Origin: Anaerolineae bacterium
Lineage (GTDB): Bacteria; Chloroflexota; Anaerolineae; S140-20
Direction of reading: 5' to 3'
Assembly: GCA_027021705.1 (NCBI GenBank)
Contig: JALUTT010000008.1
Span: 1-64,000, forward strand
Length of the DNA stretch: 64,000 bases
Both the position numbers and the translations under genes were made by a program. The notes under the pieces are model-generated. The model saw nothing but the letters and a program-made list of their open reading frames with translations. It searched no databases and was not told the origin of the DNA. This document shows, one piece after another, positions 3,268-60,571 of the stretch. The stretch's first letter is position 1; the number at the start of each line of letters is the position of its first letter.

Positions 3268-4314
3268 ATGCGCTACGTCAACCTGCTGCTGATCTTCGTC
3301 CCCCTCGCCATCCTGGGAGAAACGCTGGAATGGTCCCCCACGTTGGTCTTCACAGCCTCGGCGCTGGGGGTGATCCCCCTAGCTGGCCTCATCGGGGAAG
3401 CGACCGAGGAGTTGGCCGCCCACACGGGGCCGCGCGTCGGTGGGCTGCTGAACGCGACCTTGGGCAACGCAGCCGAGTTGATCATCAGCCTCTTCGCCAT
3501 CCGGGCCGGGCTGCTCACCCTGGTCAAGGCGTCCATCATCGGCTCGATCCTGGGCAACCTGCTGCTGGTGACCGGGGCGAGCGTATTGCTGGGCGGGCTG
3601 CGTCACGGGGTGCAGCGCTTCGACCGGGCTCAGGCCGGCCTCAACGCCACGATGCTCATCCTGGCCGTCGTCGCCATCAGCGTCCCCTCCCTCTTCAGCC
3701 ACGCCATCGAGCCCAACCATCAGGCGGTGGAGGGGCTCAGCCTGGGCGTCTCCGGCGTCATGATCGCCATCTACGGAATGGGGCTCTTCCACACGCTGCG
3801 GGCCCAACCCTCCGACCCGGCGCTCCGAGAGGCGGCCCACGCGCCTGCCTGGTCGGTGCGCAAAGCTCTCATCGTGTTGGCCGCTGCCACCGCCGCCATC
3901 GCTTGGCTCAGCGAGGTCCTCGTCGGCTCGGTGGAGGCGGTGGTCGCCCACCTGGGTTGGACCGAGTTCTTCCTGGGCATCATCATCATCCCCCTCGTGG
4001 GGAACGTGGCCGAGCATCTGGTGGCGGTGCAGGTCGCCCTCAAGGATCAGATGGAGTTGAGCCTCTCCATCTCGCTGGGCTCCAGCCTCCAGATCGCCCT
4101 CTTCGTCGCCCCGCTGCTCGTCTTCGTCAGCCTGGCGATGGGGAATCCGCTGACGCTGGTCTTCGACCAGTTCGAGCTGATCGCGATGGTGGGGTCTTCC
4201 CTCGTCGCGGCCTTGGTGGCCCTGGATGGGGAGTCCAACTGGCTGGAGGGGGCTCAACTCCTGGCGGTCTACACCATCTTGGCGCTGGCCTTTTTCTACC
4301 TGCCAGCGCCCTGA
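3268..4314 (+). CDS. cax: Ca2+/H+ antiporter (CAX family)
   Basis: GNAAELI and GNVAEH alpha-repeats, GSSLQIAL, DGESNWLEG. Confidence 0.95.
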   Translation: MRYVNLLLIFVPLAILGETLEWSPTLVFTASALGVIPLAGLIGEATEELAAHTGPRVGGLLNATLGNAAELIISLFAIRAGLLTLVKASIIGSILGNLLLVTGASVLLGGLRHGVQRFDRAQAGLNATMLILAVVAISVPSLFSHAIEPNHQAVEGLSLGVSGVMIAIYGMGLFHTLRAQPSDPALREAAHAPAWSVRKALIVLAAATAAIAWLSEVLVGSVEAVVAHLGWTEFFLGIIIIPLVGNVAEHLVAVQVALKDQMELSLSISLGSSLQIALFVAPLLVFVSLAMGNPLTLVFDQFELIAMVGSSLVAALVALDGESNWLEGAQLLAVYTILALAFFYLPAP

Positions 4315-5852
4315 TCCCGGCGGTCCTTCCAGCGCAAGAGCCGCAGCCCCTCCAGGCGCAGCACCTCCGGGAAGAGGGTCTTGTAGACGCGACAGTAGGG
4401 GGAGGGGCGGTCACTGCGGCCTGTGAGCCGATGGGTGAGGAGGGGGCAGCCCCCGGCGCACCAGTAGCGCCACGGGCAGGCGCGGCACCCCTCCCGCTGC
4501 TCCACCGGCAGGTTCTGAAAGCCGCCGTTGACCACCCGCAGGGAGGTGAGGGGGTCTTCGGTCCAGACGTCGGTCACCGGGTGCTCGATCTCCATCTGGC
4601 AGCGGGCGATCTGTCCTCGGGGGTCTACCACCAGGTAGGCGTGGCCGACTCCGCAGGGGTAACGGTGGGGCGCGGCCAGGCTGACCCGGTCCAGGAGGCC
4701 GGCGATGAGGCTGTAGGGGGGCAGGCGCTCTTCGATCACGGCCAGGGCCTGCCGGAGGGCGGCGATCAACCGGTCTTCATCCGGGGTCAGGGGGACAAGA
4801 GGTGTCCCTCGGCCCGTCCCCCGGTAGAAGTTCAGGTTGAAGAGCAGCCCCCGGTCCAGGGCGAAGGCCACCGCCTCGGGCAAGCTCTCGGCGTTGTGGG
4901 CGGTGACGGTGATGGAGAGGTGGGGACGGAGGCCTCGGGCCAGGGCTCGGTCTATAGTGCGGGCGACCCGCGCGGCGCTCCCCCGGCCGCCGACGAAGGG
5001 GCGTTGGGCGTCGTGGGCCGGCCCATCCCAGGAGATGGCGAGGCGGATGGCGGCATCGCGGAGGAAGTCCAGCATCCCGTCGTCGAGGCGGGTTCCGTTG
5101 CTCAGGACCACCTCCTGCAGGCCAAGCCCCGTCTGCCGGGCTAGGGCCAGGGCCTCCCGATGCAGGGTCTGAAGGAGATCGAAGTGAAGGGTCGGCTCGC
5201 CACCGGCGTACTTGAGCTTGACCGCCGAGAAGCTGTGGCGCTGGGCCGTGCGGAAGACAGCCTGCAAGGCAGCGCGGCCTGTCGCCACGTCCATCGTCTC
5301 GCCGGTGAGGCGGAGGTAGCAGTAGGTGCAGGCCAGGTTACAGGCACTGGTCAGATGGAGCCAAGCGGTCAACGTGGTGGGGGGTGAGGCCGGCAGCGCG
5401 GGGGATGGGGTCCTCCCCTCCGTCGGCTGGAGCAGGTTCAGCGCGGACAGGTGGTCAACCGCCCGGTGGAAGGCGTCGGTGGCCAGACCGGGCAGGCGAG
5501 GGAGGACCTGGGCCGGGGTGGCGGGGAGGGCGAAGGCGTCGAGGATATGGGCTGCCGTCCGGTTGAGCACGACGACAGCGGCCGGCCCCAGCGGTTGGAA
5601 GACCACTTCGTGACGGTCGGGCAGGGCTGCCCGGTAGAGGCCAGAGGCCCGCTGCCGGCGCACTCCTCTCCCGACAGGAGAGGCCAGGAGGACCGCCTCC
5701 CTCCCATCAGGACAGGCGCAATCGTCCTCTATGGCCTCGGCCTGGAGCGAAGGGAGGACGACCACTTCACCCGTCCCGTCGGGACAGGCGCAGTCCTGTT
5801 CACCCCTTTCCTCAAATGCCAACCAGTTCCACAGAATCACAGGACCGTTCAT
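4296..5852 (-). CDS. Radical SAM/SPASM protein with PqqD/RRE-like region and N-terminal twin DCACPDG motifs
   Basis: CNLACTYC; YAGGEP; SPASM Cys pattern CGVG...C...CRACPWRYWCAGGC...YC; LNRTAAHILD...L..LNLL RRE-like segment. Confidence 0.9.
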   Translation of the reverse strand: MNGPVILWNWLAFEERGEQDCACPDGTGEVVVLPSLQAEAIEDDCACPDGREAVLLASPVGRGVRRQRASGLYRAALPDRHEVVFQPLGPAAVVVLNRTAAHILDAFALPATPAQVLPRLPGLATDAFHRAVDHLSALNLLQPTEGRTPSPALPASPPTTLTAWLHLTSACNLACTYCYLRLTGETMDVATGRAALQAVFRTAQRHSFSAVKLKYAGGEPTLHFDLLQTLHREALALARQTGLGLQEVVLSNGTRLDDGMLDFLRDAAIRLAISWDGPAHDAQRPFVGGRGSAARVARTIDRALARGLRPHLSITVTAHNAESLPEAVAFALDRGLLFNLNFYRGTGRGTPLVPLTPDEDRLIAALRQALAVIEERLPPYSLIAGLLDRVSLAAPHRYPCGVGHAYLVVDPRGQIARCQMEIEHPVTDVWTEDPLTSLRVVNGGFQNLPVEQREGCRACPWRYWCAGGCPLLTHRLTGRSDRPSPYCRVYKTLFPEVLRLEGLRLLRWKDRRDQGAGR

Positions 5853-6336
5853 CCCACGCCTTCTCCTCTTGTCTGTTCCCCCAGATCATCTCCAACCGTT
5901 CCCCATCCCGTTCACCCTGGACGACGAAGCCGCAGCGGGCGAAGAGGCGCTGGGCCCGAAGGTTCTCCCGATGGGTGGTGAGTCGGATGCGCCGCACCCC
6001 ACGCTCGCGGGCCCAGCGGAGGGCCTGTTGGAGCATCTTTTTCCCGATCCCCCGACCCCGGTAGGGGGCGAGCAACCCGATGCCCAGCTCGACCTCCGGG
6101 GACCACCGTCCGACGCGAGGGGGGAAGAGACGGCACCAGCCGATCACCCGGCCTTCCACCTCGCCCACCAGGAGGAGGTGGTAGGGGCAGTGAGGGAAGT
6201 GCAAGGCGTGGAGCCAAGCCGGTGTCGGCTCGAAGCGCCGCGTGCGCATCCAGGGGCTCTCCTGACAGACCGCCCCGATCAGGGTGACCAGGGCCACGTG
6301 GTCGTCGGTGGCGAAGGGACGGATGCGGAAGCTCAC
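5812..6336 (-). CDS. GNAT family N-acetyltransferase
   Basis: ELGIGLLAPYRGRGIG acetyl-CoA motif, N.RAQRLF..CGF; GTGA overlap with the upstream TPR gene. Confidence 0.9.
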   Translation of the reverse strand: MSFRIRPFATDDHVALVTLIGAVCQESPWMRTRRFEPTPAWLHALHFPHCPYHLLLVGEVEGRVIGWCRLFPPRVGRWSPEVELGIGLLAPYRGRGIGKKMLQQALRWARERGVRRIRLTTHRENLRAQRLFARCGFVVQGERDGERLEMIWGNRQEEKAWDERSCDSVELVGI

Positions 6337-9300
6337 CCCACGGCCTCCTCGTAGGCTTCGGGCAGGCCGAAGTACTCCTCCAAGAGCTGCCGGGCCGGGT
6401 TCTCATCGAGCCGGCACTCCCGCTCGACCTGGCGGGCGGTTTCGTAGGCCAGGCGGAGCTCGGCCGGGTTCATCCCCTTCAGGTTCTGGTAGAAGAGGTC
6501 CTTCCCCCGGCGCAGGTCCCGGAAGTCGGGGGCGTACAGCACGTCGTGAGCCAGGGCCAGGGTGAAGTGCTCCACGCCTTTTCTCAGAAGGTCCTGGGTT
6601 GCGTCCAGAGCCTCCTCGCGGCTCTTCCCTTCCGCCCGCAGGCGCTCGTAGGCGCTGCGAAAGCGGTCCATCGCCATCAGGGCCAGCAGCATGTGGGCCT
6701 TGCCGATCTGGACCCAGAAGAAGGCCGGGGAGAGGTCGCGGCGGGGCACGCCGCGCTCCGGGGTGATGAAAAAGTCTGCCGGAAGGGACTGGAAGACCGC
6801 TTCAACGGTCTCTTCTGCCCTCTCCGGTCGGCCGGCGTAGAAGTAGAGCCAGGCCAAGTTCACCAGGGCATCCACCCGGAGGTGGGGAAAGGTCTTCCCC
6901 GCCTCTTCGGCGGCCCGCTGCAGCGTACGCTCGGCCCGCAGGGCTATCTCCTCCTGTTCCGTTGCCTCCAGCGTGGACGCCAGAGGATGGATGCGAACCC
7001 AATCCCGGTAGATGCAGCCCAGTTCGATCCGAGCTTCGATCAGACGGGAGCGCTCTTTTACCTGATCGGTAAAGATGGTGATGGCCTCGTCGGCCAGGCG
7101 CCGGGCCTCGTTGAGCAGTTCTGCCTGGGTCTTAGACGTATACCGGTAGGGGATCCACGCCTTGCGACGCAAAGCCTCGGCTAGGGCGCGGGAGGCCAGA
7201 CCAGCACCGCGCCAATTCCCTAGCTCAGAGAAAATGGCCAGGGCCTGTCGGGCCAGCTCCTCGGCCTGATCGGGCTGGTCGTTGCGGAGTTGGATCATCG
7301 CCAGGGTGTTCAGGCTGAGGGCAATGGGGTAGCGCAGTCCCAACCGCTGCCGGATCTCCAGGGCATCCTGGCAGAGCCGGATGGCCTGACCGAACTTGCC
7401 CGTCTCGGCCAGGGCCCAGGCCAGGTTGTTCAGCGTGTTGGCCGCCTCGCTCTCGAATCCGGGTCCGAGGGCCCGCCACAGGGGAAGGGCGCGACGGTAC
7501 TGCTCGACCGCCTCTTGGAAACGGCCCCGCACCCGCAAGAGATAACCCAAGTTGTTGTAGGCGTTGGCCAGCAGTGCTCGCCGTTGGTCCCTCTCAAAAG
7601 GGGTGCGGGGCTGCAGCCGGGCCAGGGCCTCAATGGCTCCCCGCAGCCGCTCCTCGGCCAGGTCCAGGTCCTGACCAGCGTAAGCGCGGGCCCACCCCTC
7701 CCAGACGGAGAGCTCGGCCTCCGCTACCGGTCCTAACCGCTCCATCAGATCGGCGGCTTCGGCGCGGAGGCGGGCGGCGATCTGCACCGCCTCGTCGTAC
7801 CGGGCGAAGACGATGGAGCGCTTGATCCATCGGACGCCCAGGTCCCAAGCTGCCCGATCGGCAATGACCTTCCTCGCTTCCTCGGGAGCTTGCTCCAGGA
7901 ATTCCAGCAATTCGACCCGAAGCTGCATATCCAAAGCCCTGTGGTAGGCGCGAAAGGCCTCGTCGGCAGCCCGGTAGTAGGTCTCAAAGCCCTGCTCGGG
8001 GTCCCGGCGCAGGGCGTAGTGCACCCGCTCGGCGATGGCGTTCTGAAGCCGGACGCGGGTTCGCTCCAGTCGGTCGAGGGGGGCTTCCGGGTCCGCCTGA
8101 AGCCGCCGCAACTCTCGACGCGCCTCCTTGATCTCTTCGTCGTAGAACCGAAGGATGGTGTCGTAGACCCACCGAGCTCGCGCCTCGGGCAGCCGGCTCA
8201 AAACGTGGCGCTCCAGCAGGGCGTACATCTCGTCCTGGAGGAAGACCCGGTTGTCGGCAGGGCGGACCTTGACGAAAGAGAGGGGGCGCAAGCTCTCCAG
8301 CAGTCGTTCCGCTTCCTCCTTGGTGGTCTCCAGGAGCCGGGCCAGCAGCCGGGCGTTCATCCCCCGCCGGGTCCAGGCCAGGGCCCGGACCGCTTCGTCG
8401 GCCGGCCGACCCGTCTCCTGGATGGCCCGGACGATCTCCCTCTCGAGTCGCTCCCGAACCTGCCGGAGCTGGTCGGGACTCATCGCCCGAGCCTCCTCCA
8501 GGGGGGTCTGGACCTTGGGGAGCAGCCGATCGGCGACGGCCAGGTAGTCAATGGTCAGGGCCAGCAGGATGGGCCGCCCCTCCGTGTAGAGGTGGATCAC
8601 CCGCCGGGTTTCTTCAGGGATCGCCTCCAGGCGGGCTGCCACCACCTCGCTCCCCTGTTCCCGGGCCACCTGGGCCACGGTCTGGAAGTAGTCCAGACTG
8701 TCGGGCTCCTCTAGCGGTCCCAGGGTGCGCTCGATGAGCCGCTCCCCTAGGGCGGCCCGCAGGTCTTCCCGCAGACGAGGGGGGCCGGGGCGGCCAGCGA
8801 TCAGGACGATGGTGTTCTCAAGAGAAGGGAGAAAGCGCTCGATCAGCCACCCCCGGGCCTCGATCCCCTGAGGGGCCAGCGCCAGCGACTGCTGCACCGG
8901 GTCGGGCTCGTAGAGAAGGACCTCGGCGGTGTCGAAGGCCAGCACCACCCGGTAGTCATCCTCCAGGCTGCGGAAGTCCTCCTGGAAAGCGCGGAGCATC
9001 CGATCCTCCTGCCAGCCGATGTCCCGGAGGTCCAGGTCTCGCCGGATCCGGGCCAGCCGTTCCCGTTCCTGCTGAAAGTCGGCGAAGTAACCCAGGCCGG
9101 GCCGGAGCACCGCCCGGATGGCCCGACATAGCCCTTCCACTGCATGGACAGGGGGGCGGTAAAGGTCCACCACATCTTGGGCGGCCAGGACCTCCGGTTC
9201 GCTCCAGGAGCCCTCCCGAAGGCGGCGCAGCACCTCCCGCAGCAGGAAGGTCTTGCCCATCCCGCCCTGGCCGGTGATGTAGAAGACGTAAGGGGCCCCC

Positions 9301-9401
9301 CGGTCCCTTACCGCCTTTCGGATCTCGTTGAGGATGGGTTCCCGGTTGATCAGCTTCGGCGTTGCCCAGACACCGGTATAGTCCAACACTCCCCTTATCA
9401 T
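6333..9401 (-). CDS. STAND-like P-loop NTPase with C-terminal TPR array
   Basis: Walker A GQGGMGKT, Walker B VVLAFDTAE, GRPILLAL (GxP), TPRs ANAYNNLG / ANTLNNLA / ALSLNTLA. Confidence 0.85.
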   Translation of the reverse strand: MIRGVLDYTGVWATPKLINREPILNEIRKAVRDRGAPYVFYITGQGGMGKTFLLREVLRRLREGSWSEPEVLAAQDVVDLYRPPVHAVEGLCRAIRAVLRPGLGYFADFQQERERLARIRRDLDLRDIGWQEDRMLRAFQEDFRSLEDDYRVVLAFDTAEVLLYEPDPVQQSLALAPQGIEARGWLIERFLPSLENTIVLIAGRPGPPRLREDLRAALGERLIERTLGPLEEPDSLDYFQTVAQVAREQGSEVVAARLEAIPEETRRVIHLYTEGRPILLALTIDYLAVADRLLPKVQTPLEEARAMSPDQLRQVRERLEREIVRAIQETGRPADEAVRALAWTRRGMNARLLARLLETTKEEAERLLESLRPLSFVKVRPADNRVFLQDEMYALLERHVLSRLPEARARWVYDTILRFYDEEIKEARRELRRLQADPEAPLDRLERTRVRLQNAIAERVHYALRRDPEQGFETYYRAADEAFRAYHRALDMQLRVELLEFLEQAPEEARKVIADRAAWDLGVRWIKRSIVFARYDEAVQIAARLRAEAADLMERLGPVAEAELSVWEGWARAYAGQDLDLAEERLRGAIEALARLQPRTPFERDQRRALLANAYNNLGYLLRVRGRFQEAVEQYRRALPLWRALGPGFESEAANTLNNLAWALAETGKFGQAIRLCQDALEIRQRLGLRYPIALSLNTLAMIQLRNDQPDQAEELARQALAIFSELGNWRGAGLASRALAEALRRKAWIPYRYTSKTQAELLNEARRLADEAITIFTDQVKERSRLIEARIELGCIYRDWVRIHPLASTLEATEQEEIALRAERTLQRAAEEAGKTFPHLRVDALVNLAWLYFYAGRPERAEETVEAVFQSLPADFFITPERGVPRRDLSPAFFWVQIGKAHMLLALMAMDRFRSAYERLRAEGKSREEALDATQDLLRKGVEHFTLALAHDVLYAPDFRDLRRGKDLFYQNLKGMNPAELRLAYETARQVERECRLDENPARQLLEEYFGLPEAYEEAVG

Positions 9402-9403
9402 TT

Positions 9404-9941
9404 GAGCGTGACCAAAAGCTGTTGAATCACTGAGCAACTGAAAGAAATGAGCTCACTGAGGAGTTATGCACCCCCTCCCCGGCGTCGGGTCACGGCCTTG
9501 CCGACGACCTGGGCCGCACTGCCCAAGGCTCAGTGTCTTCATCTCCTTCAGTACTTCAGTGATTCTGGGGGTTTGGTTGGCGGACGGACAAGCTGTCAAC
9601 GGATTGGGGAACGGATAGCTGTCAACGGATTGGGAACGGATTGAACGGATTTGGAACGGATGGGGTGGTGCTCCCAAGAGGGCTTGTCCAGATCTTCGCA
9701 CCGCTTCGTGCTCTTTGAGCTCTTGGTGTCCTTCGTGTCTCTCGCCGTGGCCGGAGCGGACGAGCTGTCAACGGATTGGGGAACGGATTGAACGGATGGG
9801 GGACGACGGCTCAGTGTCTTCACTTCCCTCAGTGCGTCAGTGATTCTGAGGGCTTTTGGACCGAGCGTGATCGGAGGCTGTTGGGGGAAAGATGCAGGGG
9901 CGTTGCGCTTCTACCGCCTCCAACCCATTTTGGTCACACTC
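9404..9941. mobile_element. Non-autonomous IS256-like element (MITE) filled with short repeats
   Basis: TIRs GAGCGTGACCAAAA (9404-9417) / TTTTGGTCACACTC (9928-9941); perfect 9-bp direct repeat TTATCATTT at 9395-9403 and 9942-9950; no transposase inside. Confidence 0.8.
9424..9846. repeat. Nested short repeat families inside the MITE
   Basis: 37-bp GAATCACTGA..CACTGAG unit at 9424-9460 with inverted copies at 9529-9565 and 9810-9846; AGCTGTCAACGGATT units at 9591, 9617, 9763; CTTCGTG..TCCTTCGTG unit ~9703-9737. Confidence 0.8.
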
Positions 9942-9983
9942 TTATCATTTCGTATCTGGTGGGTTGGCGGGTGGGAATAGGGA

Positions 9984-11156
9984 TCAACAGCCCTCGGGCG
10001 CGTATCCGGCCTGGCGGAGGGCCTGGGCGTGGTAGTCGGCTTCGGCGGCCCAGCGAGCCCCGGTCTGGGGGTAGGCCTCGGCCCAGGAGCGGTAAAGCTG
10101 ATAAGCGGCGCAGTGGAGGCGCTGCCAGCAGCGGGGGTCCCGCTCCCGGAGGTGCCGCTCCAAGAGGGGGCGGACCGCTTCGTCCACCACGTACCCTCCG
10201 CGCTCCGAGTCCCAGTGGGTCAACGCCGTGTCGAGGAGGTGATCCCGGACTTCCCGGGCTTCCTTGTACCCCCACCGCCGATACCTATCGTCTTCGTAGT
10301 AAGCTGCCAGCATCACCCGGATCTGGTCCTCGGTGAAGAAGCGGAGGGGGCAGAGAGCCTCCAAGTAGGTCCGTGCTTCGGGTTCGACGTGGTCCAGGAT
10401 CACCTCGATGACGGCGGCCAGATCGTCTCCGGTGGCCAACAGGTAGTTGGCCAGGGGGTAGCCCCGCGACCGCTGCTGAATCTGAGGGGCCTGACCGGCC
10501 TTACCGGGCACCTGGCGCTCCAACTGGGCTTTCGTCGTCTCCACGTCGAAGGGGGCCAACGTCCGCTCTTCGACGTAGAGGCGCAGCTCCGGCGCGACCC
10601 AGGGGTAGGGCTTGCCCCGACCGGCCAGCACCAACAGCACCCGGGGCAGGGTGGCCAGGGGGGCCAGCAGCCGGCGCTCCAGTTCGGCCAGGAGAGCCTC
10701 GTCGGCCTCGTAGACATGGTCCACCAGCAGCACCAGCGGGGTCCGGTGAACCAACCGCTCCACATCCTGCCGCAGAAACCGGCTCAGATCGTCCAGGGGG
10801 ACGTCCCCCCCTTGGGGGACCAGAGGGTCGGCCCCCTGCCACCGGGCAACCTGCTTCCCCAGGGCGCGGATCAGGTCGGCGACCTGGTGCCAATCGAGGA
10901 GGCTGAGGTAGACGGCGTGAGCTCCCGTACCCTCCAGTCGGTTCCCTGTCGGATGGTCGGATGGGGGAAGGGTCACTTCGGCCAGATGGCGCAACAGCCA
11001 GGTCTTGCCGCTCCCTCGCTCGCCGGCGAAGATGATGGTGCGCCGTCGCACTACCTGGTTCCCACCGATCTCCCGCGCCCTCCTCACCACCAGGTTGATC
11101 TCCTGCTCCCGGTTGACGAAGCGCTCGGGATGGTAATCAGGTATCCCATCGTTCAT
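9984..11156 (-). CDS. STAND-like P-loop NTPase (AAA_16-like), no obvious effector domain
   Basis: RFVNREQEI, Walker A GERGSGKT, Walker B LVLLVDHVYE, RGYPLA (GxP); GGAGGT RBS. Confidence 0.85.
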   Translation of the reverse strand: MNDGIPDYHPERFVNREQEINLVVRRAREIGGNQVVRRRTIIFAGERGSGKTWLLRHLAEVTLPPSDHPTGNRLEGTGAHAVYLSLLDWHQVADLIRALGKQVARWQGADPLVPQGGDVPLDDLSRFLRQDVERLVHRTPLVLLVDHVYEADEALLAELERRLLAPLATLPRVLLVLAGRGKPYPWVAPELRLYVEERTLAPFDVETTKAQLERQVPGKAGQAPQIQQRSRGYPLANYLLATGDDLAAVIEVILDHVEPEARTYLEALCPLRFFTEDQIRVMLAAYYEDDRYRRWGYKEAREVRDHLLDTALTHWDSERGGYVVDEAVRPLLERHLRERDPRCWQRLHCAAYQLYRSWAEAYPQTGARWAAEADYHAQALRQAGYAPEGC

Positions 11157-11230
11157 GCTCACCTCCCGCCGTCGCCTCTCCAATCCCTGCCCAGGATCAA
11201 CCTGGGGGAGGGAGAAGGGGACTCCATCGG

Positions 11231-12580
11231 CTACGATGACGTCCCCTTGCTCACATTCTGCTTCCCTCCGGCCCCTGCCGGGTCACTGCCCTCGGCGGAC
11301 TGCCGGGCGTACCAGGCCAGGGCTGCCTCCAGGTCCTCCGACGAAAGGCGGCCCTCCGGCCCTGCCCGGAGGATGTGCTCCAGGAAGAGCCGCTCCGCGA
11401 CCAGGAGCAGCTCCCGAGGGTAGGGCCGGACCTCGTCCACCAGCCTCTCATCGGCATCGTACAATCCCGGATCACCCAAGGCCCCCAACCGGTCGAACCG
11501 ACCTTGACTGGCCGCCAACAGCCGCTGGCGCAAGAGGGCCAAGAGGGACGAACGATTCCACGCTATCATAGCAACTCTTGGCTCCGGTGTCAAGAGCTCC
11601 TCGACCCTTTCTTGCCAGGGCCTCGCTTCCTGAGGCAGGAACGCCTTCAGAAAGGCCCCTGGAGCCCGATCGTTCCATTGGCGGAGGAGGTGTAGGAGGG
11701 GGGCCAGGACCTCCGCGATCCGGTCCGGGCGGTTCAGCGTCTCCGGGTAGGCGTCCACCCCGTCCAGGAGCAAGTAGACCGCCTGATAGCCCAGGAGGTC
11801 GGTGAGCAACTCATGTAAGCTCTGCCAGCGGCTGTCGGCATCCTGTTGAGAGGAGGGGGCGGTGGAGAGACTTTCGGCCAGCGCAGCTTTCAGCCGTTGA
11901 AGGCGCCGAGCTGTGGGCGGATTCGCCATCGTGAAGGTGGGATCATACCCTTCCCCCAGCACGGAGAGGTCTTGGGCTGTCTGCACGGAGGCCAGGAGGT
12001 GGGTCGGCGGTGTGGGGAGGTTGTGGGCAAGCCAGGAAGCCAGGCGGCGGCGTTGAGAAGGCGGGAGGTCCAGGTAACGTTCAGGGCGGTAAGCAAGGGT
12101 CAAAAGCAACTCCAGCGCTGCCGCCTCTAGGATCGTCTCCCGATAGCTCCGCCGCCGATCCGGGGGAGCCGCCTGCACGACACGCTCGGGGAGCGTGTAG
12201 ACAATGGGGAAGATACGCCGCCCGTCCCGACCGGCCCGGCAGGCGTGGGCCAGCCAGACGCGGAAGGCGCTCTTCCCTCCCCTGGCGGGGGCGAAGACCA
12301 GCGACGGCCAGTCTCCCCAAAGGATCTCCAGCACCTGGTGTCCGACCAAGTACTGGCTCAGCCGAGGATCGGCAGCAGCATCCAGAACGCGAAAGGGATC
12401 GAAAGCCAGGCCAAAGGAAGCCAGCCAGCGGTCAATCTGCGCTTCTGGTGAGTCAGGCGCTTGTTCAGAGAGGTCTGCCGGCGTCGGACGGGAGGTTGAG
12501 TTAGAGGATGGATCATCTTGGAATAAGGCTCTCATCACCCGCTCACATACACTACCATCTTCTGCGTGTAAAGACCACAA
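11231..12580 (-). CDS. Divergent STAND-like NTPase (paralog of 12730-14121 and 14284-16179); N-terminus uncertain or decayed
   Basis: FGL..DPF...A..D..L motif, deviant Walker A APARGGKS, VYLLLDGVD, W....L..LL..RL, YPRELL. Confidence 0.75.
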   Translation of the reverse strand: MWSLHAEDGSVCERVMRALFQDDPSSNSTSRPTPADLSEQAPDSPEAQIDRWLASFGLAFDPFRVLDAAADPRLSQYLVGHQVLEILWGDWPSLVFAPARGGKSAFRVWLAHACRAGRDGRRIFPIVYTLPERVVQAAPPDRRRSYRETILEAAALELLLTLAYRPERYLDLPPSQRRRLASWLAHNLPTPPTHLLASVQTAQDLSVLGEGYDPTFTMANPPTARRLQRLKAALAESLSTAPSSQQDADSRWQSLHELLTDLLGYQAVYLLLDGVDAYPETLNRPDRIAEVLAPLLHLLRQWNDRAPGAFLKAFLPQEARPWQERVEELLTPEPRVAMIAWNRSSLLALLRQRLLAASQGRFDRLGALGDPGLYDADERLVDEVRPYPRELLLVAERLFLEHILRAGPEGRLSSEDLEAALAWYARQSAEGSDPAGAGGKQNVSKGTSS

Positions 12581-12729
12581 AGTGAATACTCAAGACCTAG
12601 GATGAGTTGATAGGCGGCGCTGGCTCATCCCGGGGACCCTATCGTAGCCTGAAGATCCAGACGGTATTGTGTAGTTGCTTTGCAAGAAGCTCATCCTTGG
12701 CTCGCGGCAACCTCACCCCAACCTCACCC

Positions 12730-14121
12730 TCACCAAGCATTCTCCAAGCGCACACCTTTACCCTTGACCGTCACCACCAGGACCGGGTTCTTGGGGTCCG
12801 GCTCCAGGACCTGGCGGAGACGCCAGAGGGCGGTATCCAGCGTGCCGGCGTACTCGGCGGGGCGGGCATCGGGGTCCCCGTGGCTGCCGGGGTACGCGCT
12901 CACGTACTGCAGGTAGAGGGGCCGACGGTGGCAGACCGTCCCCCGGTGGCGGTAGAGGAAGCGGAGCATCGCCTCTAGGCCGGGGGCCAGGTCCTCCACC
13001 CGCCGCCAACCGACGGTCACTCGGCCTGTCTCCTCGTCGAAGAAGAGACGCGGGGGGTGGCGTCGCTTGATCTCCTGGGATGTGTCGGGGGAGAGGGGCC
13101 GAGGCCGACCCTCCTGCTCCGTCTGGGCCAAGTAGGCGGCCAGGAAGGGGCGGGTGAACTCCAGCCACCCTTTGGGTACCTCGCCGCCGCAGCGGGCCAG
13201 CCACGTCGTCAGCTTCCTATCCCGACTCAGGTCCCGGAGGGTGAAGCCGGGGAGGCCCAAGGCCAGGGAGAGACGGGCCTCGACGATGGCGATCAGGTCC
13301 TCTCGCCGCCATTGGATCCGGTAGACCTCCACCCGCCGCCGGGCGACGGCCCCGGCCGACCAGAGGGAGGACTCCAACTCGGCGGGGAGGAAGAACTTGT
13401 AGGCAAAGCGCGGGTGCTCGAAGAGGGCCAGGGTGGAGAGGAAGGCCTGAAGGCTCTCTACCAGCCGGTCCGGGTTCATCTCCAACCAGGGGGTGACGTC
13501 GTCCATCAGCACGCGGACCCCCTCGATCCCGAGGGTGCGGAGCGCCTTCGTCAATTCGGCCACCACCAGCATCGGGGGGGCTTGGGAATGGAGCAGATCC
13601 CGAGACGGGGCCTGGAGGATCTCGCGGAGCAGGGCTCGGCCTTCCACGGGGGCTTCGGTCCCGGCCGTGGCAACGGCGTGCTCCAGATCCCCCTGGAAGT
13701 ACCGGTGTAGGAACCAGACCAGCGTTTCGTGGGCCCAGGGGGGGGCTGCCCCCCACCTCGCCAGATGGCGGGCCAGGTACTCCAGCAGGCTGCGGGCCAC
13801 GGCGTCCATCACCTGGTTCCGCAGGACGATCACCAGGTCGGTGCCGGCAAGGTCAGGCTGGAAGAGCAGGCTCACGGGCCAGGGGACGAGGAGCCAGCGG
13901 GGGGGAGTTCCTGGGGGGTTCCATCGGCGCATCAGGGCCAGGCGCAGCGCCGTCTTGCCGCTGCCCACGTCGCCGAAGATGAGGGCGGATCGGGCGCCGG
14001 CGATGAGGGGAAAGTCTCGAGGCGGCACGTAGCAGTCGCTCAGCCAGGGTTCATCCTCGGCCCGCAGGCTATCAAAGGCGGCCAAGCCCAGGGGTTCCTG
14101 CATCGCTGCTTCTGAAGCCAT
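12730..14121 (-). CDS. STAND-like NTPase with C-terminal OmpR/PhoB-type winged-helix domain
   Basis: AFDSLRAEDE, Walker A GDVGSGKT; C-terminal LDTALWRLRQVLEPDPKNPVLVVTVKGKGVRL; AAGGAG RBS before ATG 14121. Confidence 0.85.
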   Translation of the reverse strand: MASEAAMQEPLGLAAFDSLRAEDEPWLSDCYVPPRDFPLIAGARSALIFGDVGSGKTALRLALMRRWNPPGTPPRWLLVPWPVSLLFQPDLAGTDLVIVLRNQVMDAVARSLLEYLARHLARWGAAPPWAHETLVWFLHRYFQGDLEHAVATAGTEAPVEGRALLREILQAPSRDLLHSQAPPMLVVAELTKALRTLGIEGVRVLMDDVTPWLEMNPDRLVESLQAFLSTLALFEHPRFAYKFFLPAELESSLWSAGAVARRRVEVYRIQWRREDLIAIVEARLSLALGLPGFTLRDLSRDRKLTTWLARCGGEVPKGWLEFTRPFLAAYLAQTEQEGRPRPLSPDTSQEIKRRHPPRLFFDEETGRVTVGWRRVEDLAPGLEAMLRFLYRHRGTVCHRRPLYLQYVSAYPGSHGDPDARPAEYAGTLDTALWRLRQVLEPDPKNPVLVVTVKGKGVRLENAW

Positions 14122-14135
14122 CTTCACGCTCCTTG

Positions 14136-14274
14136 CCACGGACCGCCGACCGCCGACTGCGGACCACGGCCTCGCCCACTCGTTGCCTCATCGCCTCGAT
14201 GTCGACCGCTGACCACGGACCGCCGACCGCCGACTGCGGACCACGGCCTCGCCCATTCATTGCCTCATCACCTC
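14136..14274. repeat. 62-bp direct repeat pair built from 7/8-mer units
   Basis: CCACGGACCGCCGACCGCCGACTGCGGACCACGGCCTCGCCCA... at 14136-14197 and 14213-14274 (3 mismatches). Confidence 0.85.
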
Positions 14275-14283
14275 ATTGCCTCA

Positions 14284-16179
14284 TCACTTTATCGCCCCGC
14301 CCTCCTCCTTAATTACCACTTTCATCTCCCCTACGCTCAGCCGGCCCTTCTCCCCGAACCGCTCCAGCAGCCAGTTGCCCAGGCGGACCAGCCGGCGGGG
14401 GGAGCCCTGAGCCGCTTCAACGATCCAGCCATCGGGATCGTCGGGGCGGTCCGGTCCGAAGAGTTGAGCCAGGGACTCCCCTCCCACCTGCCGGAGACGC
14501 TGGTCAAGCAGTTGGCGGAGGTGATCGGGGCTCCACTCTAGGTGGACCGTTTCGACCGTTATCGGCACGAGCGCTTGGGGCGTTGGCACCGCTATCTTCA
14601 AGTAGCAGTTGGCTTTTTCCAACAGCGGGATCATCCTCAGCAAGGGACGGAGCCTCTCTCGGAGCAGAACGGGGGTCAGAGAATCACACCACTGTTTGGG
14701 GATGTCCAGCAGCAGCTCGTATCCCCAAAAGCCCGCCAAGTGTGCCTGGCTGAGGATGACCCACAGCGCAATCTCGGTATCTTCTCGCGAGACTCCCGCG
14801 CCGGAGGCACTGTCACGAAGGGCAGTTGCCAAATCCCGCTCCACCCCTTTTTCAATCAGGTGGGCTTCCAGATCATCCGGGCCTATGTGGTGCAACACGA
14901 GGTTTGCGACCGCCCGTTGGTGGGTCGGCGACATACTTGGGAAGGCGTTGGAGTTGCGGATCAGGAAGTCCAGAATCGCTTCGGTGATCGTCTCGGTCAA
15001 GACCTCCAGAAGCTGACGGCGTGAGTTCGCTGTGAGAGTTGGGCGTGGAGATAACCAGACCGGGAAAAGTCCTCCCTGCTCTCGACGCTTAGAAGTCCAG
15101 AGAAGCAGCGCAGCGGTCTTGCCCATCCCTACGGCTCCCGTAAGAGCCAAGGAAAGGGAAGCGGAGATTTCCGACCAGCGTGGAGGCTCCACAAAGAAGC
15201 TCGGCAGGTCGGCCTCCTCCTCGGCCCTCTCAGGACCGAAGGGATTCTTTGACCACCCCAGAAGTTCCAACGCTTGGGCGATCAGATCAGGATCATCAGG
15301 GCGAGGGGAAGGCCAAAGGGGAGGCCATATCATCTCCTGGTCAGCGAGGATAAGCAGTCGCCTTGCCGACAGGCTGCCCTCCTCTTCACTTCGTGCCTTG
15401 TCCTCTAAGTAATTTCTGATGCGCTCTTGACGGAGCAACCACCTTCCCCGGGGATGTTTCAAGACCGCCTGCTCGCATTCGACGATCCCCCCGGGCTGCT
15501 CGAGCAGAGTGCGTAGCCGCTCACCCAGCAGGTTCCCCAGCCGCTTTCCATAGGAACGGCCGGCCAGGAGGGCACAAGCGTGAATCCCTTCCCTAATGCT
15601 GTCAGTCCCCTCCGGCGAATCCAGCAAGTAGCGCCAAGCCCGCACTTCGGAATCCGCTCGCCCGTCAAGCTCCTCGACCATTTGAATCCAATCACGGGCC
15701 CCTGGGCGGTCGCCCTTGCCCAGCGCCTCAGCAGCTCTCGTCAGGGCATCCTGCCGCAACGAAACCCGCCAGCGTTTCTGTAAGACTGTCAAAATATCCC
15801 TATCCCTCTCCTGCACGGCCTCCCTCCAGAGTTGCTGGAAGCGGCGGAGGCGTTCGTCTTTCTCCAGACCTGGCAAGGTGGCAATTTGCCGTCCTTGTAC
15901 TGCCTGATCCAAAGGGCGCTGAGCCTCAGAAGTCTCTTCTTCCCTAGTCCTTGCTGCAAGCAATTGTTCGACTTCGGGATCCATCGGCAAAGCCAATCGT
16001 CCACACAACCGCCGGTACTCGTCCAACCACTCGTCTAGGAGATTCTCGCGTGCCCTGATCTTCCGGGAGAGTTCTCGCCTCTTCGCCTTGTCATCCGTCA
16101 TGAGAAGGTCCTCCTCCCACTCCCGAATGAGTTCAGCAACCTCGTGAATGAGGTGCTCTAGGTCCTCTTTGCGACCCAT
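14284..16179 (-). CDS. STAND-like NTPase with N-terminal helical adaptor-like region
   Basis: LGWSKNPFGPERAEEE, Walker A GAVGMGKT, YELLLD, AQGSPRRL; charged N-terminal helical hairpin. Confidence 0.8.
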   Translation of the reverse strand: MGRKEDLEHLIHEVAELIREWEEDLLMTDDKAKRRELSRKIRARENLLDEWLDEYRRLCGRLALPMDPEVEQLLAARTREEETSEAQRPLDQAVQGRQIATLPGLEKDERLRRFQQLWREAVQERDRDILTVLQKRWRVSLRQDALTRAAEALGKGDRPGARDWIQMVEELDGRADSEVRAWRYLLDSPEGTDSIREGIHACALLAGRSYGKRLGNLLGERLRTLLEQPGGIVECEQAVLKHPRGRWLLRQERIRNYLEDKARSEEEGSLSARRLLILADQEMIWPPLWPSPRPDDPDLIAQALELLGWSKNPFGPERAEEEADLPSFFVEPPRWSEISASLSLALTGAVGMGKTAALLLWTSKRREQGGLFPVWLSPRPTLTANSRRQLLEVLTETITEAILDFLIRNSNAFPSMSPTHQRAVANLVLHHIGPDDLEAHLIEKGVERDLATALRDSASGAGVSREDTEIALWVILSQAHLAGFWGYELLLDIPKQWCDSLTPVLLRERLRPLLRMIPLLEKANCYLKIAVPTPQALVPITVETVHLEWSPDHLRQLLDQRLRQVGGESLAQLFGPDRPDDPDGWIVEAAQGSPRRLVRLGNWLLERFGEKGRLSVGEMKVVIKEEGGAIK

Positions 16180-16302: not shown

Positions 16303-16331
16303 AGCTTAGCATATCCGGCCCCGCTTGTCAA
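16303..16331 (-). promoter_or_regulatory. Putative promoter of the NTPase cluster
   Basis: Minus strand TTGACA-N17-TAAGCT with extended -10 TG. Confidence 0.6.
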
Positions 16332-16342
16332 CGCGCATCTCT

Positions 16343-16494
16343 GGTGATTACCCATATCTTTGGAGATAGGGAGACTAGCCGTCCACGAATGGGGCACGAA
16401 TACACGAATTAGAGTCCGACCCATTCGTGTATTCGTGAGGATTCGCGGACGGCCCGCTACGGCCCATTCCCTCGCCCATTTGTGGGTAATCACC
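16343..16494. mobile_element. ~150-bp MITE-like element, copy 1
   Basis: 12-bp TIR GGTGATTACCCA/TGGGTAATCACC; internal CACGAAT palindromes; homologous to 35760-35909 and 60280-60432. Confidence 0.85.
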
Positions 16495-16647
16495 AACTCC
16501 GCGAGGTTCCCGTGAGAGAGACGGGATTTCCTGGCAAAGTGATGATGAGCTTCCTACGCAGAATATACCAGAATTGGACCCTGGTTGTAGAGTAGAATGA
16601 AGATGCCAAAGGTGAAGGCAACCTGTTGGTCCAGAGGAGGGGGTACG

Positions 16648-16839
16648 ATGATCCAAAGTGTCATGCAGATCGGGTGTGGGGTTTTTCTCGGGATCGGGCT
16701 GCTCTTCCTGGCGATGACCAAGATCAGCCAGCGGCATGGGGATGAAGAAGGGGCCGGCTTCGCGTCTCAGATCGCTGCTTTCTCCTTCCTCCTGGCTGCG
16801 GCGGCGCTGTGGCTGGCCTATAGCATCCAGATGGGATGA
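16648..16839 (+). CDS. Small membrane protein (2 predicted TM helices)
   Basis: GGAGGGGG RBS; MIQSVMQIGCGVFLGIGLLFLAM...AAFSFLLAAAALWLAY. Confidence 0.6.
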   Translation: MIQSVMQIGCGVFLGIGLLFLAMTKISQRHGDEEGAGFASQIAAFSFLLAAAALWLAYSIQMG

Positions 16840-17124: not shown

Positions 17125-17523
17125 TCATCCTGACGGTACCCGGTTTTCTTCCCCCGGCCCCGGGGCGATCCCCCGCTCCTGCAGGAAGGCCACCACACGC
17201 TCCAGGATCTCCTCCAGCGCGAGCCCGTCGGTGTGCAGGTAGAGGTCGGCGTGCCGATGGGCGTGCGCGAGCCGCTCCCGCTGCCGGCGGACGATGGCCT
17301 CCGTCCAGTCCGTCCGCCCCAGCCGGCGGTTCACCTCGGCTGCGCCGACGTCCAGGTAGACGAGGAGGGCCGGCCGGGCCATCCGCCGCCACATCTGGGG
17401 CACGTAGGAGTGCTCCTGGGCCAGCGCCCGGGCCCGGTAGCCCCGCCGCCGCAACGCCGCCGCCAACGTGCTCTTGCCGGAGCCGCACGGCCCTACGATG
17501 GCGATGAGTGGTCGCTTGGTCAC
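17125..17523 (-). CDS. Small P-loop kinase-like protein
   Basis: IAIVGPCGSGKST, AQEHSYVPQMW, LVYLDV. Confidence 0.8.
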   Translation of the reverse strand: MTKRPLIAIVGPCGSGKSTLAAALRRRGYRARALAQEHSYVPQMWRRMARPALLVYLDVGAAEVNRRLGRTDWTEAIVRRQRERLAHAHRHADLYLHTDGLALEEILERVVAFLQERGIAPGPGEENRVPSG

Positions 17524-17752
17524 TTGGTCAGGTGGTCCTCGGTCCTCGGTCCTCAGTCCGCACTTGGTCGCTTGGTCGCTTGGTCGCTTGGTCGGGTAGT
17601 CGAGTAGTTCTCGGTCCTCAGTCCTCAGTCCTCGGTTCGCAGTCCTCAGTCCGCTGCCAAGTCGCTAGTTCGCTATGCCGCTAGGCCGCTTGATCGGCGG
17701 TCGGATGGTTGCCCGGCTTCTCCAGTCCTTCGACTACTTGACCACCCGACCA
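17524..17752. repeat. Intergenic 7/8-mer tandem repeats
   Basis: GGTCCTC/AGTCCTC and CTTGGTCG runs. Confidence 0.8.
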
Positions 17753-17753
17753 A

Positions 17754-18461: not shown

Positions 18462-18529
18462 CGTTCTACTCGCTAATGGGGAAAACCAGTGTGGAAAGCG
18501 ATGGGCCGGGATGGAAGCCGGCCTGCCCC

Positions 18530-22088: not shown

Positions 22089-22182
22089 ATCCGCTCAATC
22101 CGTTCTCAAATCCGCTGACAGCCTTCCGTTCCCAAACGAACTGCTGTCAACGGATTAAGGGAGCGGATTGAACGGAGCTGTC
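22089..22182. repeat. Inverted pair of the GCTGTCAACGGATT repeat family
   Basis: ATCCGCTCAATCCGTTCTCAAATCCGCTGACAGC (22089-22122) versus GCTGTCAACGGATTAAGGGAGCGGATTGAACGGA (22143-22176); same family as 9591-9797. Confidence 0.8.
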
Positions 22183-60484: not shown

Positions 60485-60571
60485 GGAGGGGTGCCGGAGT
60501 GGACGATCGGGGCGGTCTCGAAAACCGTTGTGGCCGCAAGGCCACCGTGGGTTCGAATCCCACCCCCTCCG
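60485..60571 (+). tRNA. tRNA-Ser (anticodon CGA)
   Basis: Acceptor GGAGGGG/CCCCTCC, anticodon loop CT-CGA-AA, long variable arm GTGGCC-GCAA-GGCCAC, GTTCGAATCC; CCA not encoded. Confidence 0.97.

Follow-up and report, generated by a model that had tools for sequence, protein, structure and literature searches.

Passages of Kaur et al. (2020; PMC7159879) describe bacterial conflict systems, dependent on nucleoside triphosphates (NTPs), in which variable effector and adaptor modules are attached to a constant core, paralogous copies occur within a genome, the NTPases evolve fast and the distribution is biased towards filamentous bacteria. Within such systems, section 24 of that paper places a peptide-processing module made up of a precursor, a zincin peptidase, a radical S-adenosylmethionine (SAM) enzyme with a SPASM domain (FxSxx type) and an obligatory AP-ATPase with tetratricopeptide repeats (TPRs), and proposes the modified peptide as a signal or toxin. 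Here we describe a related locus at nt 4296–16179 of a 64,000-nt stretch (positions 1 to 64,000 of contig JALUTT010000008.1, assembly GCA_027021705.1, an Anaerolineae bacterium of the Chloroflexota), the whole of which we call the window. Seven open reading frames (ORFs) lie there head to tail on the minus strand, encoding five ATPases (P1 to P5), a GNAT acetyltransferase and a radical SAM/SPASM enzyme, hereafter rSAM (Table 1). An earlier note, made from the sequence letters, had picked out the seven co-oriented genes and five Walker A strings, all of which we recovered in the translations of P1 to P5, and had mentioned rSAM–TPR–NTPase pairings of FxSxx-COOH loci, which are indeed in print (Kaur et al., 2020; PMC7159879 section 24). 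Since the pairing of an FxSxx-type rSAM with a TPR-STAND protein is already published, the locus is a new variant rather than a new kind.

The core of the system consists of a short STAND NTPase (P4), a STAND NTPase with TPRs (P5), the two being fused in some relatives, and an rSAM maturase with a substrate-like tail. In Chloroflexota, three ORC/Cdc6-like ATPases are added ahead of this core, of which P1 has a variable N-terminal module, P2 a DNA-binding domain and P3 nothing extra. We consider the chances about even that the locus is the Chloroflexota version of a conserved, so far unnamed NTP-dependent conflict system of the immunity or programmed-death type. NTPase switches, peptide-modifying rSAM enzymes and swappable effectors are already known as a grammar; the parts list, the apparently fused precursor and the triple ORC/Cdc6-like ATPase module are new. 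The earlier note recognized no named system of this composition, and PADLOC, NCBIfam and Pfam name none either. PADLOC (PADLOC-DB v2.0.0), a check that it had proposed, returned generic matches only, a weak one of rSAM to the viperin profile pVip (1.6e-17) and one of the P5 TPR region to a TPR model, and nothing for P2 or P3. No paper describing this composition was found in full-text literature searches, whose scope excluded many subscription papers, and the same searches found none on Sll1717, on a precursor fused to a radical SAM enzyme acting on peptides that the ribosome makes and that are modified after translation (RiPPs), or on SPASM together with a TIR domain in anti-phage defence. 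The term 'radical SAM' is absent from Kaur et al. (2021; PMC8195603) and from a 2026 STAND survey (PMC13581612), while SPASM, Radical_SAM, rSAM and EAD9 are absent from two supplements of PMC7159879, whose figure source data may lie outside those files.

The closest described relatives are the FxSxx/vWA-MoxR systems (Kaur, Burroughs, Iyer and Aravind, 2020; PMC7159879). They too couple an rSAM/SPASM enzyme to a STAND ATPase with C-terminal TPRs, have loci with TIR, caspase and trypsin modules and EAD adaptors, and occur preferentially in bacteria with filamentous or multicellular growth, Chloroflexota and cyanobacteria among them. Unlike them, neither the seven window proteins nor 12 flanking ORFs contain vWA, MoxR or zincin peptidase. 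Scores against the families of the FxSxx-COOH system (Haft, NCBIfam) reach 53.7 bits for FxsB (TIGR04269, cut-off 370) and 43.6 bits for FxSxx_TPR (NF040586, cut-off 300), and a six-frame regular-expression search of the whole window for an F-x-S-x-x-COOH precursor gave two matches, in open frames of only 11 and 15 codons. The candidate peptide of the window is instead Cys/Asp-rich and fused to the enzyme, and the ATPase complement of the locus comprises two paralogous STAND proteins and three ORC/Cdc6-like proteins.

Conservation of the NTPase–rSAM unit

The NTPases and the rSAM/SPASM gene, six of the seven genes, form a conserved syntenic unit rather than a chance array. A scan of one genome per species with the rSAM alignment (A1) yielded at least 80 loci (L001–L080), and all locus counts refer to this sample. 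An orthologue-like set (n = 27; L001–L026 and L028) is 34–52% identical to rSAM, and a control set of generic rSAM/SPASM loci (n = 53; L027 and L029–L080) is 23–37% identical over shorter stretches. More broadly, rSAM has more than 120 full-length homologue clusters at 48–59% identity, the few named ones being from metagenome-assembled genomes (MAGs) of Chloroflexota or Anaerolineae. Neighbourhood conservation across Chloroflexota, another check suggested earlier, was borne out by tblastn: P2-P3-P4-P5-rSAM are colinear in L001 (Caldilineaceae) and in L002, L016 and L018 (Anaerolineae), with P3 orthologues at the same position in all four, and P3-P4-P5-rSAM are colinear in L011. Identity to the window proteins in these loci is 39–52% for rSAM and 26–39% for the ATPases. 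Among the 80 listed loci a true P1 orthologue was found by tblastn in L018 only; a P1 match in L002 overlaps the P2 gene and was rejected as a paralogue cross-match.

Linkage extends beyond these genomes. By ORF map, 21 of the 26 evaluable orthologue-like loci (L028 begins inside rSAM and was left out) have rSAM directly preceded by a co-oriented P5-like gene. In profile searches with hidden Markov models (E ≤ 1e-5), the P5 N-terminal NTPase domain was found in 19 of the 27 orthologue-like loci, a P4 or c3 profile in 16 and a P1-3-type profile in seven, versus none of the 53 control loci in each case; c3 is the NTPase family encoded just upstream of P5 in loci outside the Chloroflexota type. 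Identical longest-contig sizes also recur between homologue lists, 12 times for P5 and rSAM and, for contigs of at least 13 kb, 19 times for P2 and rSAM. Another P2/rSAM coincidence, at 2130 nt, was dropped as too short for both genes. Two genomes carry two P5–rSAM units each (L008/L012 and L006/L021). As a side observation, the P5-like gene and rSAM of L023 are both broken into several ORFs and the rSAM of L025 (Nostoc) is split in two, which points to decaying copies or assembly errors.

Natural fusions tie the NTPases together. L011 encodes a P4–P5 ORF of 1586 aa, and 14 long P4 relatives, chosen by length from 150 listed, include seven full-length P4–P5 fusions (1370–1504 aa), three shorter P4–P5 forms, one fusion of a P1/3-type ATPase to P4 and one P4–P4 tandem. 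These fusions bear on the idea that the array is two or three independent modules lying side by side (P1–P4; P5-GNAT-rSAM), which would account for the 546-bp repeat spacer between P4 and P5, for the TTGACA promoter-like elements inside the locus, and for the many loci that hold the P4/c3-P5-rSAM part without P1–P3. Besides the fusions, the order P2-P3-P4-P5-rSAM, with P4/P5 junctions of only 17–51 bp, persists in four genomes at 26–52% protein identity, and P1-3-type genes occur in none of the 53 control loci. We therefore regard independent modules as very unlikely.

The GNAT gene is the exception. The earlier note counted it as part of the system and named unlinkage of GNAT and rSAM from the NTPases as a finding that would speak against its proposal; the linkage holds for rSAM and fails for GNAT, for which tblastn gave no match in any of the 80 listed loci, related or control. 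The P5/rSAM gap of 800 bp in L018 contains no ORF. In the Kow0063 MAG, the tags of rSAM (_18600) and P2 (_18650) leave room, by numbering alone, for four genes between them, as in the window. The GC content at third codon positions (GC3) of GNAT, 0.82, is in line with that of the adjoining genes. GNAT, an intact acetyltransferase by Pfam, is on this evidence a lineage-specific local add-on outside the conserved unit, an accessory that is possibly a tailoring or protective enzyme.

The rSAM enzyme and its N-terminal tail

Both sequence and model mark rSAM as a putative peptide maturase of the CteB/PapB kind. Its CxxxCxxC and seven SPASM cysteines are invariant in 19 aligned sequences (A1), and together with the SPASM spacing (C-x2-C-x5-C-x3-C plus flanking Cys) and an N-terminal RiPP recognition element (RRE) they give the enzyme the general features of rSAM/SPASM RiPP maturases. 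The best NCBIfam matches, nif11-type rSAM (E = 1e-34), PapB (NF047865; E = 7e-31) and QhpD (E = 5e-28), all fall below cut-off, with 107.7 bits versus 340 for PapB and 98 bits versus 453 for QhpD, so that rSAM is a homologue of PapB and a member of neither family. The rSAM family profile finds CteB (5wgg; E = 2e-34), RRE region included, and the AlphaFold (AF2) model (pTM 0.81) has CteB as its top Foldseek neighbour (E = 4e-18, 465 columns, TMt 0.67), followed by anSME, SkfB, TigE, ChlB, SuiB and PqqE. Residues 60–143 are modelled with high confidence as four short strands followed by three helices. CteB (SCIFF), PapB (ranthipeptides) and QhpD share the RRE, CxxxCxxC and seven-Cys SPASM with rSAM, CteB being closest by sequence and fold. 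Unlike these enzymes, rSAM has its candidate substrate fused to its own N-terminus and has NTPases rather than exporters or proteases as partners, and its chemistry is one that we infer.

The Cys/Asp-rich, substrate-like tail of rSAM is a feature beyond those of the earlier note. It contains two units, E18-Q-D-C-A-C-P-D25 (nt 5778–5801) and E42-D-D-C-A-C-P-D49 (nt 5706–5729), of a family motif with the consensus E-x-D-C-A-C-[P/A]-[D/E] and a hydrophobic stretch such as (I/V)LW ahead of each unit. The shorter motif [DNEQ]C[AD]C precedes the rSAM core in 113 of 120 homologues, once in 43, twice in 66 and three times in four; the seven without it are shorter and probably N-terminally truncated calls. 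C45, A46 and C47 are invariant in A1, and the spacing from motif to RRE varies. Elsewhere in the six-frame translation of the window the motif is absent except for one unrelated NCAC. In 24 of the 27 orthologue-like loci, variants such as DCDCAC, CDCDGGDCAC and QCDCAF lie in frame upstream of the enzyme, also in L006, L021 and L023, whose enzymes have no RRE. Of the three exceptions, L028 is cut at its 5' end, and in the other two, the most distant members, a separate ORF that stops at the rSAM start or just ahead of it carries the motif: 50 aa in L026 (5728–5880), ending ...KLYCQDDCACENNN, and 38 aa in L024 (2486–2602), ending ...KILYGQCDACGNDNNLE. This split arrangement is how a RiPP precursor and its maturase are usually laid out. 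In the AF2 model of the window protein, pLDDT is below 50 at residues 10–59, directly next to the confident RRE-type domain. In view of the variable copy number, the predicted disorder, the adjoining RRE and the existence of split forms, a RiPP precursor joined to its own maturase is the simplest interpretation of the tail.

The composition of the tail is compatible with such a role. PapB cross-links Cys-X3-Asp/Glu motifs and tolerates other spacings (PMC9413430); like PapA, the candidate substrate here has motifs of this type, C-A-C-P-D occurring twice, and x-D/E follows CxC in most of the 120 homologues. The nearest characterized enzymes (CteB, and PapB and QhpD by profile) form Cys thioethers.

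The same residues could, in principle, play a different part. CxC pairs flanked by acidic residues can bind metals, and the motif might be a metal- or Fe-S-binding or regulatory element rather than a substrate, with rSAM modifying an ATPase, another protein or a small molecule that acts as signal or toxin. Nearly all members have the motif joined to the enzyme, the three without an RRE (L006, L021 and L023) included, and the weak generic matches to PADLOC viperin profiles could be read in the same direction. Protein-sized substrates of SPASM enzymes are also on record, as with CrpC/CrpA, where a SPASM enzyme is reported to install thioether links on one (PMC13692751). A fixed binding site sits poorly with one to three copies, a variable distance to the RRE and a tail predicted to be disordered, and in two relatives the motif occupies the typical precursor position on a separate small ORF. 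Most members have the RRE, which implies a peptide substrate, and the viperin-type matches are far weaker than those to peptide maturases. We accordingly rate a metal-binding or regulatory motif as improbable, and retain the fused precursor as the simplest reading. A complex prediction for P5 residues 560–1034 (A4) with whole rSAM (A1) scored 0.00, which speaks neither for nor against binding.

Two ATPase classes, attached effectors and possible function

All five NTPases had been called STAND-like in the earlier note, which holds for P4 and P5 and is not supported for P1–P3. P4 and P5 have a Walker A, an hhhhD(D/E) Walker B, a conserved Arg after strand 4 and a GxP motif in the helical domain, and both score above cut-off for AAA_16. 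As noted earlier, they form a second type, one with TPRs (TPR_12, E = 3e-21 for the P5 array): FVNRxxE/LINRE, hhhhDxxE and GxP are common to the two, at positions kept in their families. Conserved residues are G54/G57/G59/K60, D155, E159, G188-R189-G190 and G241/P243 in P4 (A2), and G59/G61/K62/T63, D169/T170/E172, G215/R216 and G287/P289 in P5 (A4). Close paralogy of P4 and P5 was considered and rejected, their BLASTP comparison being not significant; the kinship is at family level. P4 has 659 representative homologues at E ≤ 1e-3, and P5 has 75 homologue clusters of about 1010–1100 aa each.

P1–P3 all match the NCBIfam profiles DS41_1_antiphage (NF053860; E = 1e-12 to 1.6e-16) and ATPase_Sll1717 (NF047389; E = 1e-8 to 6e-11). 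Scores for P1, P2 and P3 are 47.8, 60.3 and 53.5 bits against the equivalog cut-off of 370 for NF053860, and 42.1, 37.9 and 34.7 bits against the subfamily cut-off of 75 for NF047389, which makes them distant homologues of the anti-phage protein DS-41 and not members. Positional orthologues in L011 and L016 come near the NF047389 cut-off (73.5 and 69.7 bits), and an L011 relative scores 160 bits with the DS-41/Sll1717 profiles, above P1–P3 of the window. DS-41 is listed in supplement file 7 of the DefensePredictor study (PMC13092281) as a validated single-gene anti-phage defence of E. coli. In place of that single gene, the window has three diverged tandem paralogues, of which P2 bears a winged helix and P1 a variable N-terminal module. 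All three have in common an N-terminal (N/D)PF...AE.E..L motif, Walker A, an hhhhDG Walker B, and K.FLP and PR motifs (alignment A5), with F22, G61, W277, L282, R289 and P322 invariant in the 14 family members aligned. Pairwise BLASTP is weak (P1/P2 E = 1e-6; P2/P3 E = 0.025; P1/P3 not significant). The earlier suggestion of paralogy from a common N-terminal motif thus stands, with the three as old paralogues; a recent tandem duplication was rejected on the weak BLASTP values.

The fold of this family was judged from P2, whose AF2 model (pLDDT 94.3, pTM 0.90) was built on a deep alignment of 45 sequences (A6). Its top Foldseek neighbours are Cdc6/Orc1 proteins (1fnn, 1w5s, 2qby) and the BREX ATPase BrxC (9zll, 9zdx); Cdc6 1fnn, BrxC 9zll and ORC2 1w5s lie in ranks 1–8, and CED-4 first appears at rank 28 (E = 1.4e-3). 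With low TM scores (0.3–0.4) the placement is approximate, and it suggests an ORC/Cdc6-like AAA+ family rather than classic STAND. The likeness to DS-41, Sll1717 and BrxC covers both profiles (E = 1e-8 to 1e-16) and the P2 model. The C-terminal 100 residues of P2 overlay the DNA-binding domains of the OmpR/PhoB type (YycF, PhoB, RstA; TMt 0.67–0.76, 25–30% identity by Foldseek), in agreement with Pfam Trans_reg_C, and the 116 homologue clusters of P2 are uniform in length. Residues 1–300 of P1 match no Pfam family and have weak HEAT/TPR-like structural neighbours (TM ≤ 0.41, ESM Atlas), and an ESM Atlas feature search with these residues gave no usable match. In the P2 orthologue of L001 (2493–3863), Arg replaces the Walker A Lys (GSGRT) and the winged helix is kept; from its sequence, this may be a non-hydrolysing member of a hetero-set.

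The c3 family is homologous to P4 over the whole length of P4 (hhalign probability 98.7%, E = 4e-16, 338 columns), and its N-terminal modules include TIR_2 (L014), Trypsin_2 (L006) and EAD9 (L015, the Nostoc locus tested). In four Nostoc loci conserved genes precede c3, in L015 a trypsin–EAD9 protein and a Trypco1 protein, and in L022 a CHAT protease does so. At the P1 position, L001 encodes a caspase domain (Pfam Peptidase_C14 E = 5e-13; NCBIfam caspase_w_EACC1 E = 3e-22) joined to an ATPase of the P1-3 type, L011 has NERD and UvrD, L002, L016 and L009 have P1-3-type ATPases with other, unassigned N-terminal regions, and the rearranged L013 adds DUF4062 and NACHT proteins. These features match the signature of NTP-dependent conflict systems as set out in the passages of PMC7159879 cited above, and the effectors at or next to the P4 and P1 positions lend independent support to the conflict module proposed in the earlier note, as does the distant homology of P1–P3 to DS-41. 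They also recall Avs/AVAST and NLR-like sensors: P4 and P5 are STAND-type NTPases, the TPRs of P5 resemble a sensor array, and P4 homologues bear N-terminal TIR or trypsin as Avs proteins carry effectors. Unlike Avs, the locus has no PADLOC Avs match, its sensor and effector-bearing NTPases are separate paralogues, it has an obligate rSAM partner, and P4 and P5 of the window have no effector domain.

Much of this inventory could also suit an ordinary RiPP natural-product cluster without a role in conflict, in which a cross-linked peptide would be the product of rSAM, with tailoring by GNAT, and the ATPases would regulate the pathway in the manner of STAND/SARP/LAL proteins, P2 being the DNA-binding activator. 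STAND/SARP-type regulators of biosynthetic clusters include AfsR and MalT-like proteins, and the locus likewise sets two such combinations beside a peptide-modifying enzyme, ATPase plus OmpR-type winged helix in P2 and ATPase plus TPRs in P5. In favour are an rSAM with RRE, SPASM and a precursor-like peptide, a GNAT, of a class often used for tailoring, weak matches of the P5 TPR region to the RiPP-associated TPR proteins HaaT and FxSxx_TPR (NCBIfam), an ABC/MacB/HlyD exporter encoded on the same strand 2.4 kb upstream of P1, and flanks of a housekeeping kind. Five ATPases, however, far exceed the need of a regulator set, and P2 has its winged helix on the C-terminal side of an ORC/Cdc6-like ATPase, the reverse of the order in AfsR/MalT-like regulators, with the features spread over different proteins. 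Enzyme and peptide are one protein, the unit of the window includes neither a protease nor a dedicated exporter, the exporter neighbourhood varies in position and orientation across related loci, and GNAT is missing from all 80 listed loci. Homologous loci attach TIR, caspase, CHAT, trypsin–Trypco1–EAD9 and NERD–UvrD, death or immune effectors counted as conflict hallmarks in the cited passages of PMC7159879, to the same NTPases. A natural-product cluster is thus unlikely in our view.

For a conflict system we suggest the following course of events. The RRE-guided rSAM would install thioether (ranthionine-like) links between Cys and Asp/Glu residues of its own tail, and the TPR array of P5 might then perceive the tail, modified or released, as a ligand, a bait or a releasable signal. 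P4 and P5 could assemble in an NTP-dependent manner, set a threshold and gate the output, which would pass through a lineage-attached module, elsewhere TIR, trypsin, CHAT or caspase. In the window the output would probably run through P1–P3, by DNA binding or transcription via the P2 winged helix, with the helical N-terminal module of P1 as a sensor or adaptor. A more specific and quite unlikely form of this proposal is a self-priming maturase, in which the cross-linked tail would be the dedicated ligand or alarm peptide of an NLR-like P4/P5 pair, a peptide messenger made on demand in an immune or cell-death system of filamentous bacteria; the proteases of sister loci (trypsin, CHAT, caspase) would free the tail, and P1–P3 would form a hetero-oligomeric, DNA-bound output or sensor.

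Several points weigh against a conflict role. As the earlier note had observed, the seven window proteins contain no TIR, protease or nuclease by Pfam, NCBIfam or PADLOC, and PADLOC gave no real match. The ATPases and rSAM score far below the curated NCBIfam cut-offs of named families, and the proposed function is a computational prediction. Of all the parts rSAM evolves most slowly, a pattern that suits a housekeeping-like enzyme no less than an unchanging part of a conflict system; five loci (L003, L004, L005, L024 and L026) have no P5 neighbour, so rSAM can stand alone; and a tblastn search of a plasmid collection with rSAM (E ≤ 1e-30) gave no match. The split-precursor argument draws on two loci whose enzymes are 34% identical, the L024 motif is C-D-A-C rather than C-A-C, and x-D/E is missing after some tail motifs. 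Finally, the flanks hold housekeeping genes, not a defence island.

Were the conflict reading true, it would add an immune-type system that is widespread in Chloroflexota and has sister forms in filamentous bacteria such as Nostoc, groups in which defence is almost unstudied and whose systems current catalogues miss. RiPP-type radical chemistry would be linked to NLR-like NTPase switches through a fixed three-gene core, offering a tractable case for the role of modified peptides in conflict systems, a question raised by the FxSxx systems, and enzyme and substrate in one protein would make for a RiPP architecture that is uncommon as well as handy for biochemistry. On a modest reading, the annotation is corrected to two ATPase classes instead of five STAND proteins, with GNAT outside the unit and probably two or more transcription units. 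What we describe is a real and conserved feature that is uncharacterized; what the earlier note observed was largely right and what it made of it partly so.

Locus layout, regulation and flanking genes

Table 1. Features of the locus, with positions in the window and the evidence for each
Feature	Position (nt)	Strand	Evidence
P1, 631 aa; all-alpha N-terminal module (~aa 1–300) and Sll1717/DS-41-type AAA+ ATPase, Walker A GAVGMGKT	14284..16179	-	NCBIfam NF053860 E 1e-12, NF047389 E 6e-11, both below cut-off
P2, 469 aa; Sll1717/DS-41-type AAA+ ATPase (GDVGSGKT) and C-terminal OmpR/PhoB-type winged helix	12730..14139	-	Pfam Trans_reg_C E 1.5e-5; AF2 model
P2 winged helix, aa 390–464	12748..12972	-	
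P3, 449 aa; Sll1717/DS-41-type AAA+ ATPase (APARGGKS), no extra domain	11231..12580	-	NF053860 E 1.9e-14, profile positions 1–374
P4, 399 aa; short STAND-type NTPase (GERGSGKT; Walker B D155; GxP 241–243) and helical C-terminal region	9984..11183	-	Pfam AAA_16 34.1 bits, cut-off 32.6
P5, 1034 aa; STAND-type NTPase (GQGGMGKT; Walker B D169; GxP 287–289), helical region, TPR array (~aa 547–886), C-terminal helical domain	6333..9437	-	Pfam AAA_16 and TPR_12/TPR_1/TPR_10
GNAT acetyltransferase, 174 aa, between P5 and rSAM	5812..6336	-	Pfam Acetyltransf_1 E 3e-21
rSAM, 518 aa; radical SAM/SPASM peptide maturase (predicted) with fused N-terminal tail	4296..5852	-	NCBIfam, profile, AF2/Foldseek
rSAM tail, aa 1–59, two E-x-D-C-A-C-P-D units; presumed fused precursor/substrate peptide	5676..5852	-	motif; pLDDT <50 at 10–59
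RRE-like (PqqD-type) peptide-recognition domain, aa 60–143	5424..5675	-	AF2 model; aligns with N-terminal part of CteB
Radical SAM CxxxCxxC (C171, C175, C178) and SPASM Cys (C400, C418, C456, C459, C465, C469, C487)	4392..5342	-	invariant in A1
Promoter-like site TTGACA-N17-TAAGCT	16303..16331	-	read directly; ~125 nt upstream of P1 start
Second promoter-like site, within P3 and ~380 nt upstream of P4, TTGACA-17-TATGAT	11565..11593	-	consensus match only
Repeat-DNA spacer between P4 and P5, 546 bp	9438..9983	.	three AATCCGTTGACAGC copies, 48-nt direct repeat, 37-nt inverted repeats

The gene junctions are as first described, a GTGA overlap between P5 and GNAT and 41 bp common to GNAT and rSAM. 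The proposal of one promoter for all seven genes fared less well. The TTGACA-N17-TAAGCT site ahead of P1 is present, with a perfect -35 hexamer; its -10 agrees with the consensus at only three of six positions, and a consensus promoter scan did not list it. That scan found a stronger site inside P3 (11 of 12 positions, TG before the -10), and the P4/P5 spacer, whose GC content of 0.577 is lower than that of its surroundings, also leaves single-promoter control unproven. With P4/P5 junctions of 17–51 bp in L001, L002, L016 and L018, the spacer looks like a local insertion. A single operon of seven genes is doubtful, and the locus probably holds at least two transcription units.

The repeat unit AATCCGTTGACAGC of the spacer contains a perfect -35 hexamer and also occurs as an inverted pair in another intergenic region (22109–22156); its five matches compare with 0.27 expected by chance. 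Possibly it is an element dispersed in the host genome, with a regulatory function or of the miniature mobile type. A candidate operator, possibly for the P2 winged helix, is formed by two perfectly inverted 15-nt arms, CACGAATACACGAAT / ATTCGTGTATTCGTG, around a 13-nt loop (16395–16437); it lies some 65 nt upstream of the -35 hexamer in the P1 promoter-like site. GC3 is markedly lower in P1 (0.68; GC 0.60) and P3 (0.74; GC 0.65) than in P2, P4, P5, GNAT and rSAM (0.82–0.87) or the flanking genes (0.87–0.94), which suggests a different history or relaxed codon selection for P1 and P3.

On one side the locus is flanked by the MacB/ABC/HlyD exporter, a SpoIIE phosphatase, MgsA and an E1 dehydrogenase, and on the other by a Ca2+ exchanger, a protein resembling diacylglycerol kinase and an SPFH protein; no gene of a mobile element or a defence island was found among the flanking ORFs. 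Directly upstream of the locus (17125–18533, minus strand) are a small P-loop kinase-like protein (132 aa, AAA_18) and the SpoIIE/PP2C-type phosphatase (259 aa), which have no cluster in common with the ORFs of related loci. The lower-GC gap upstream of P1 contains an 80-aa ORF with two hydrophobic stretches (16597–16839, plus strand), divergent from the locus and without a Pfam match. Searched with Rfam at gathering thresholds, the whole window gave a single match, a tRNA at 60485–60571, and none within the locus. About 14 kb from the locus, a second NTPase–TPR signalling protein (1377 aa; 29966–34099, minus strand) combines an adenylate/guanylate cyclase domain (aa 306–485), an AAA_16 STAND-type NTPase (aa 507–694) and a long TPR array, part of which is 35% identical to the P5 TPR region over 134 aa.

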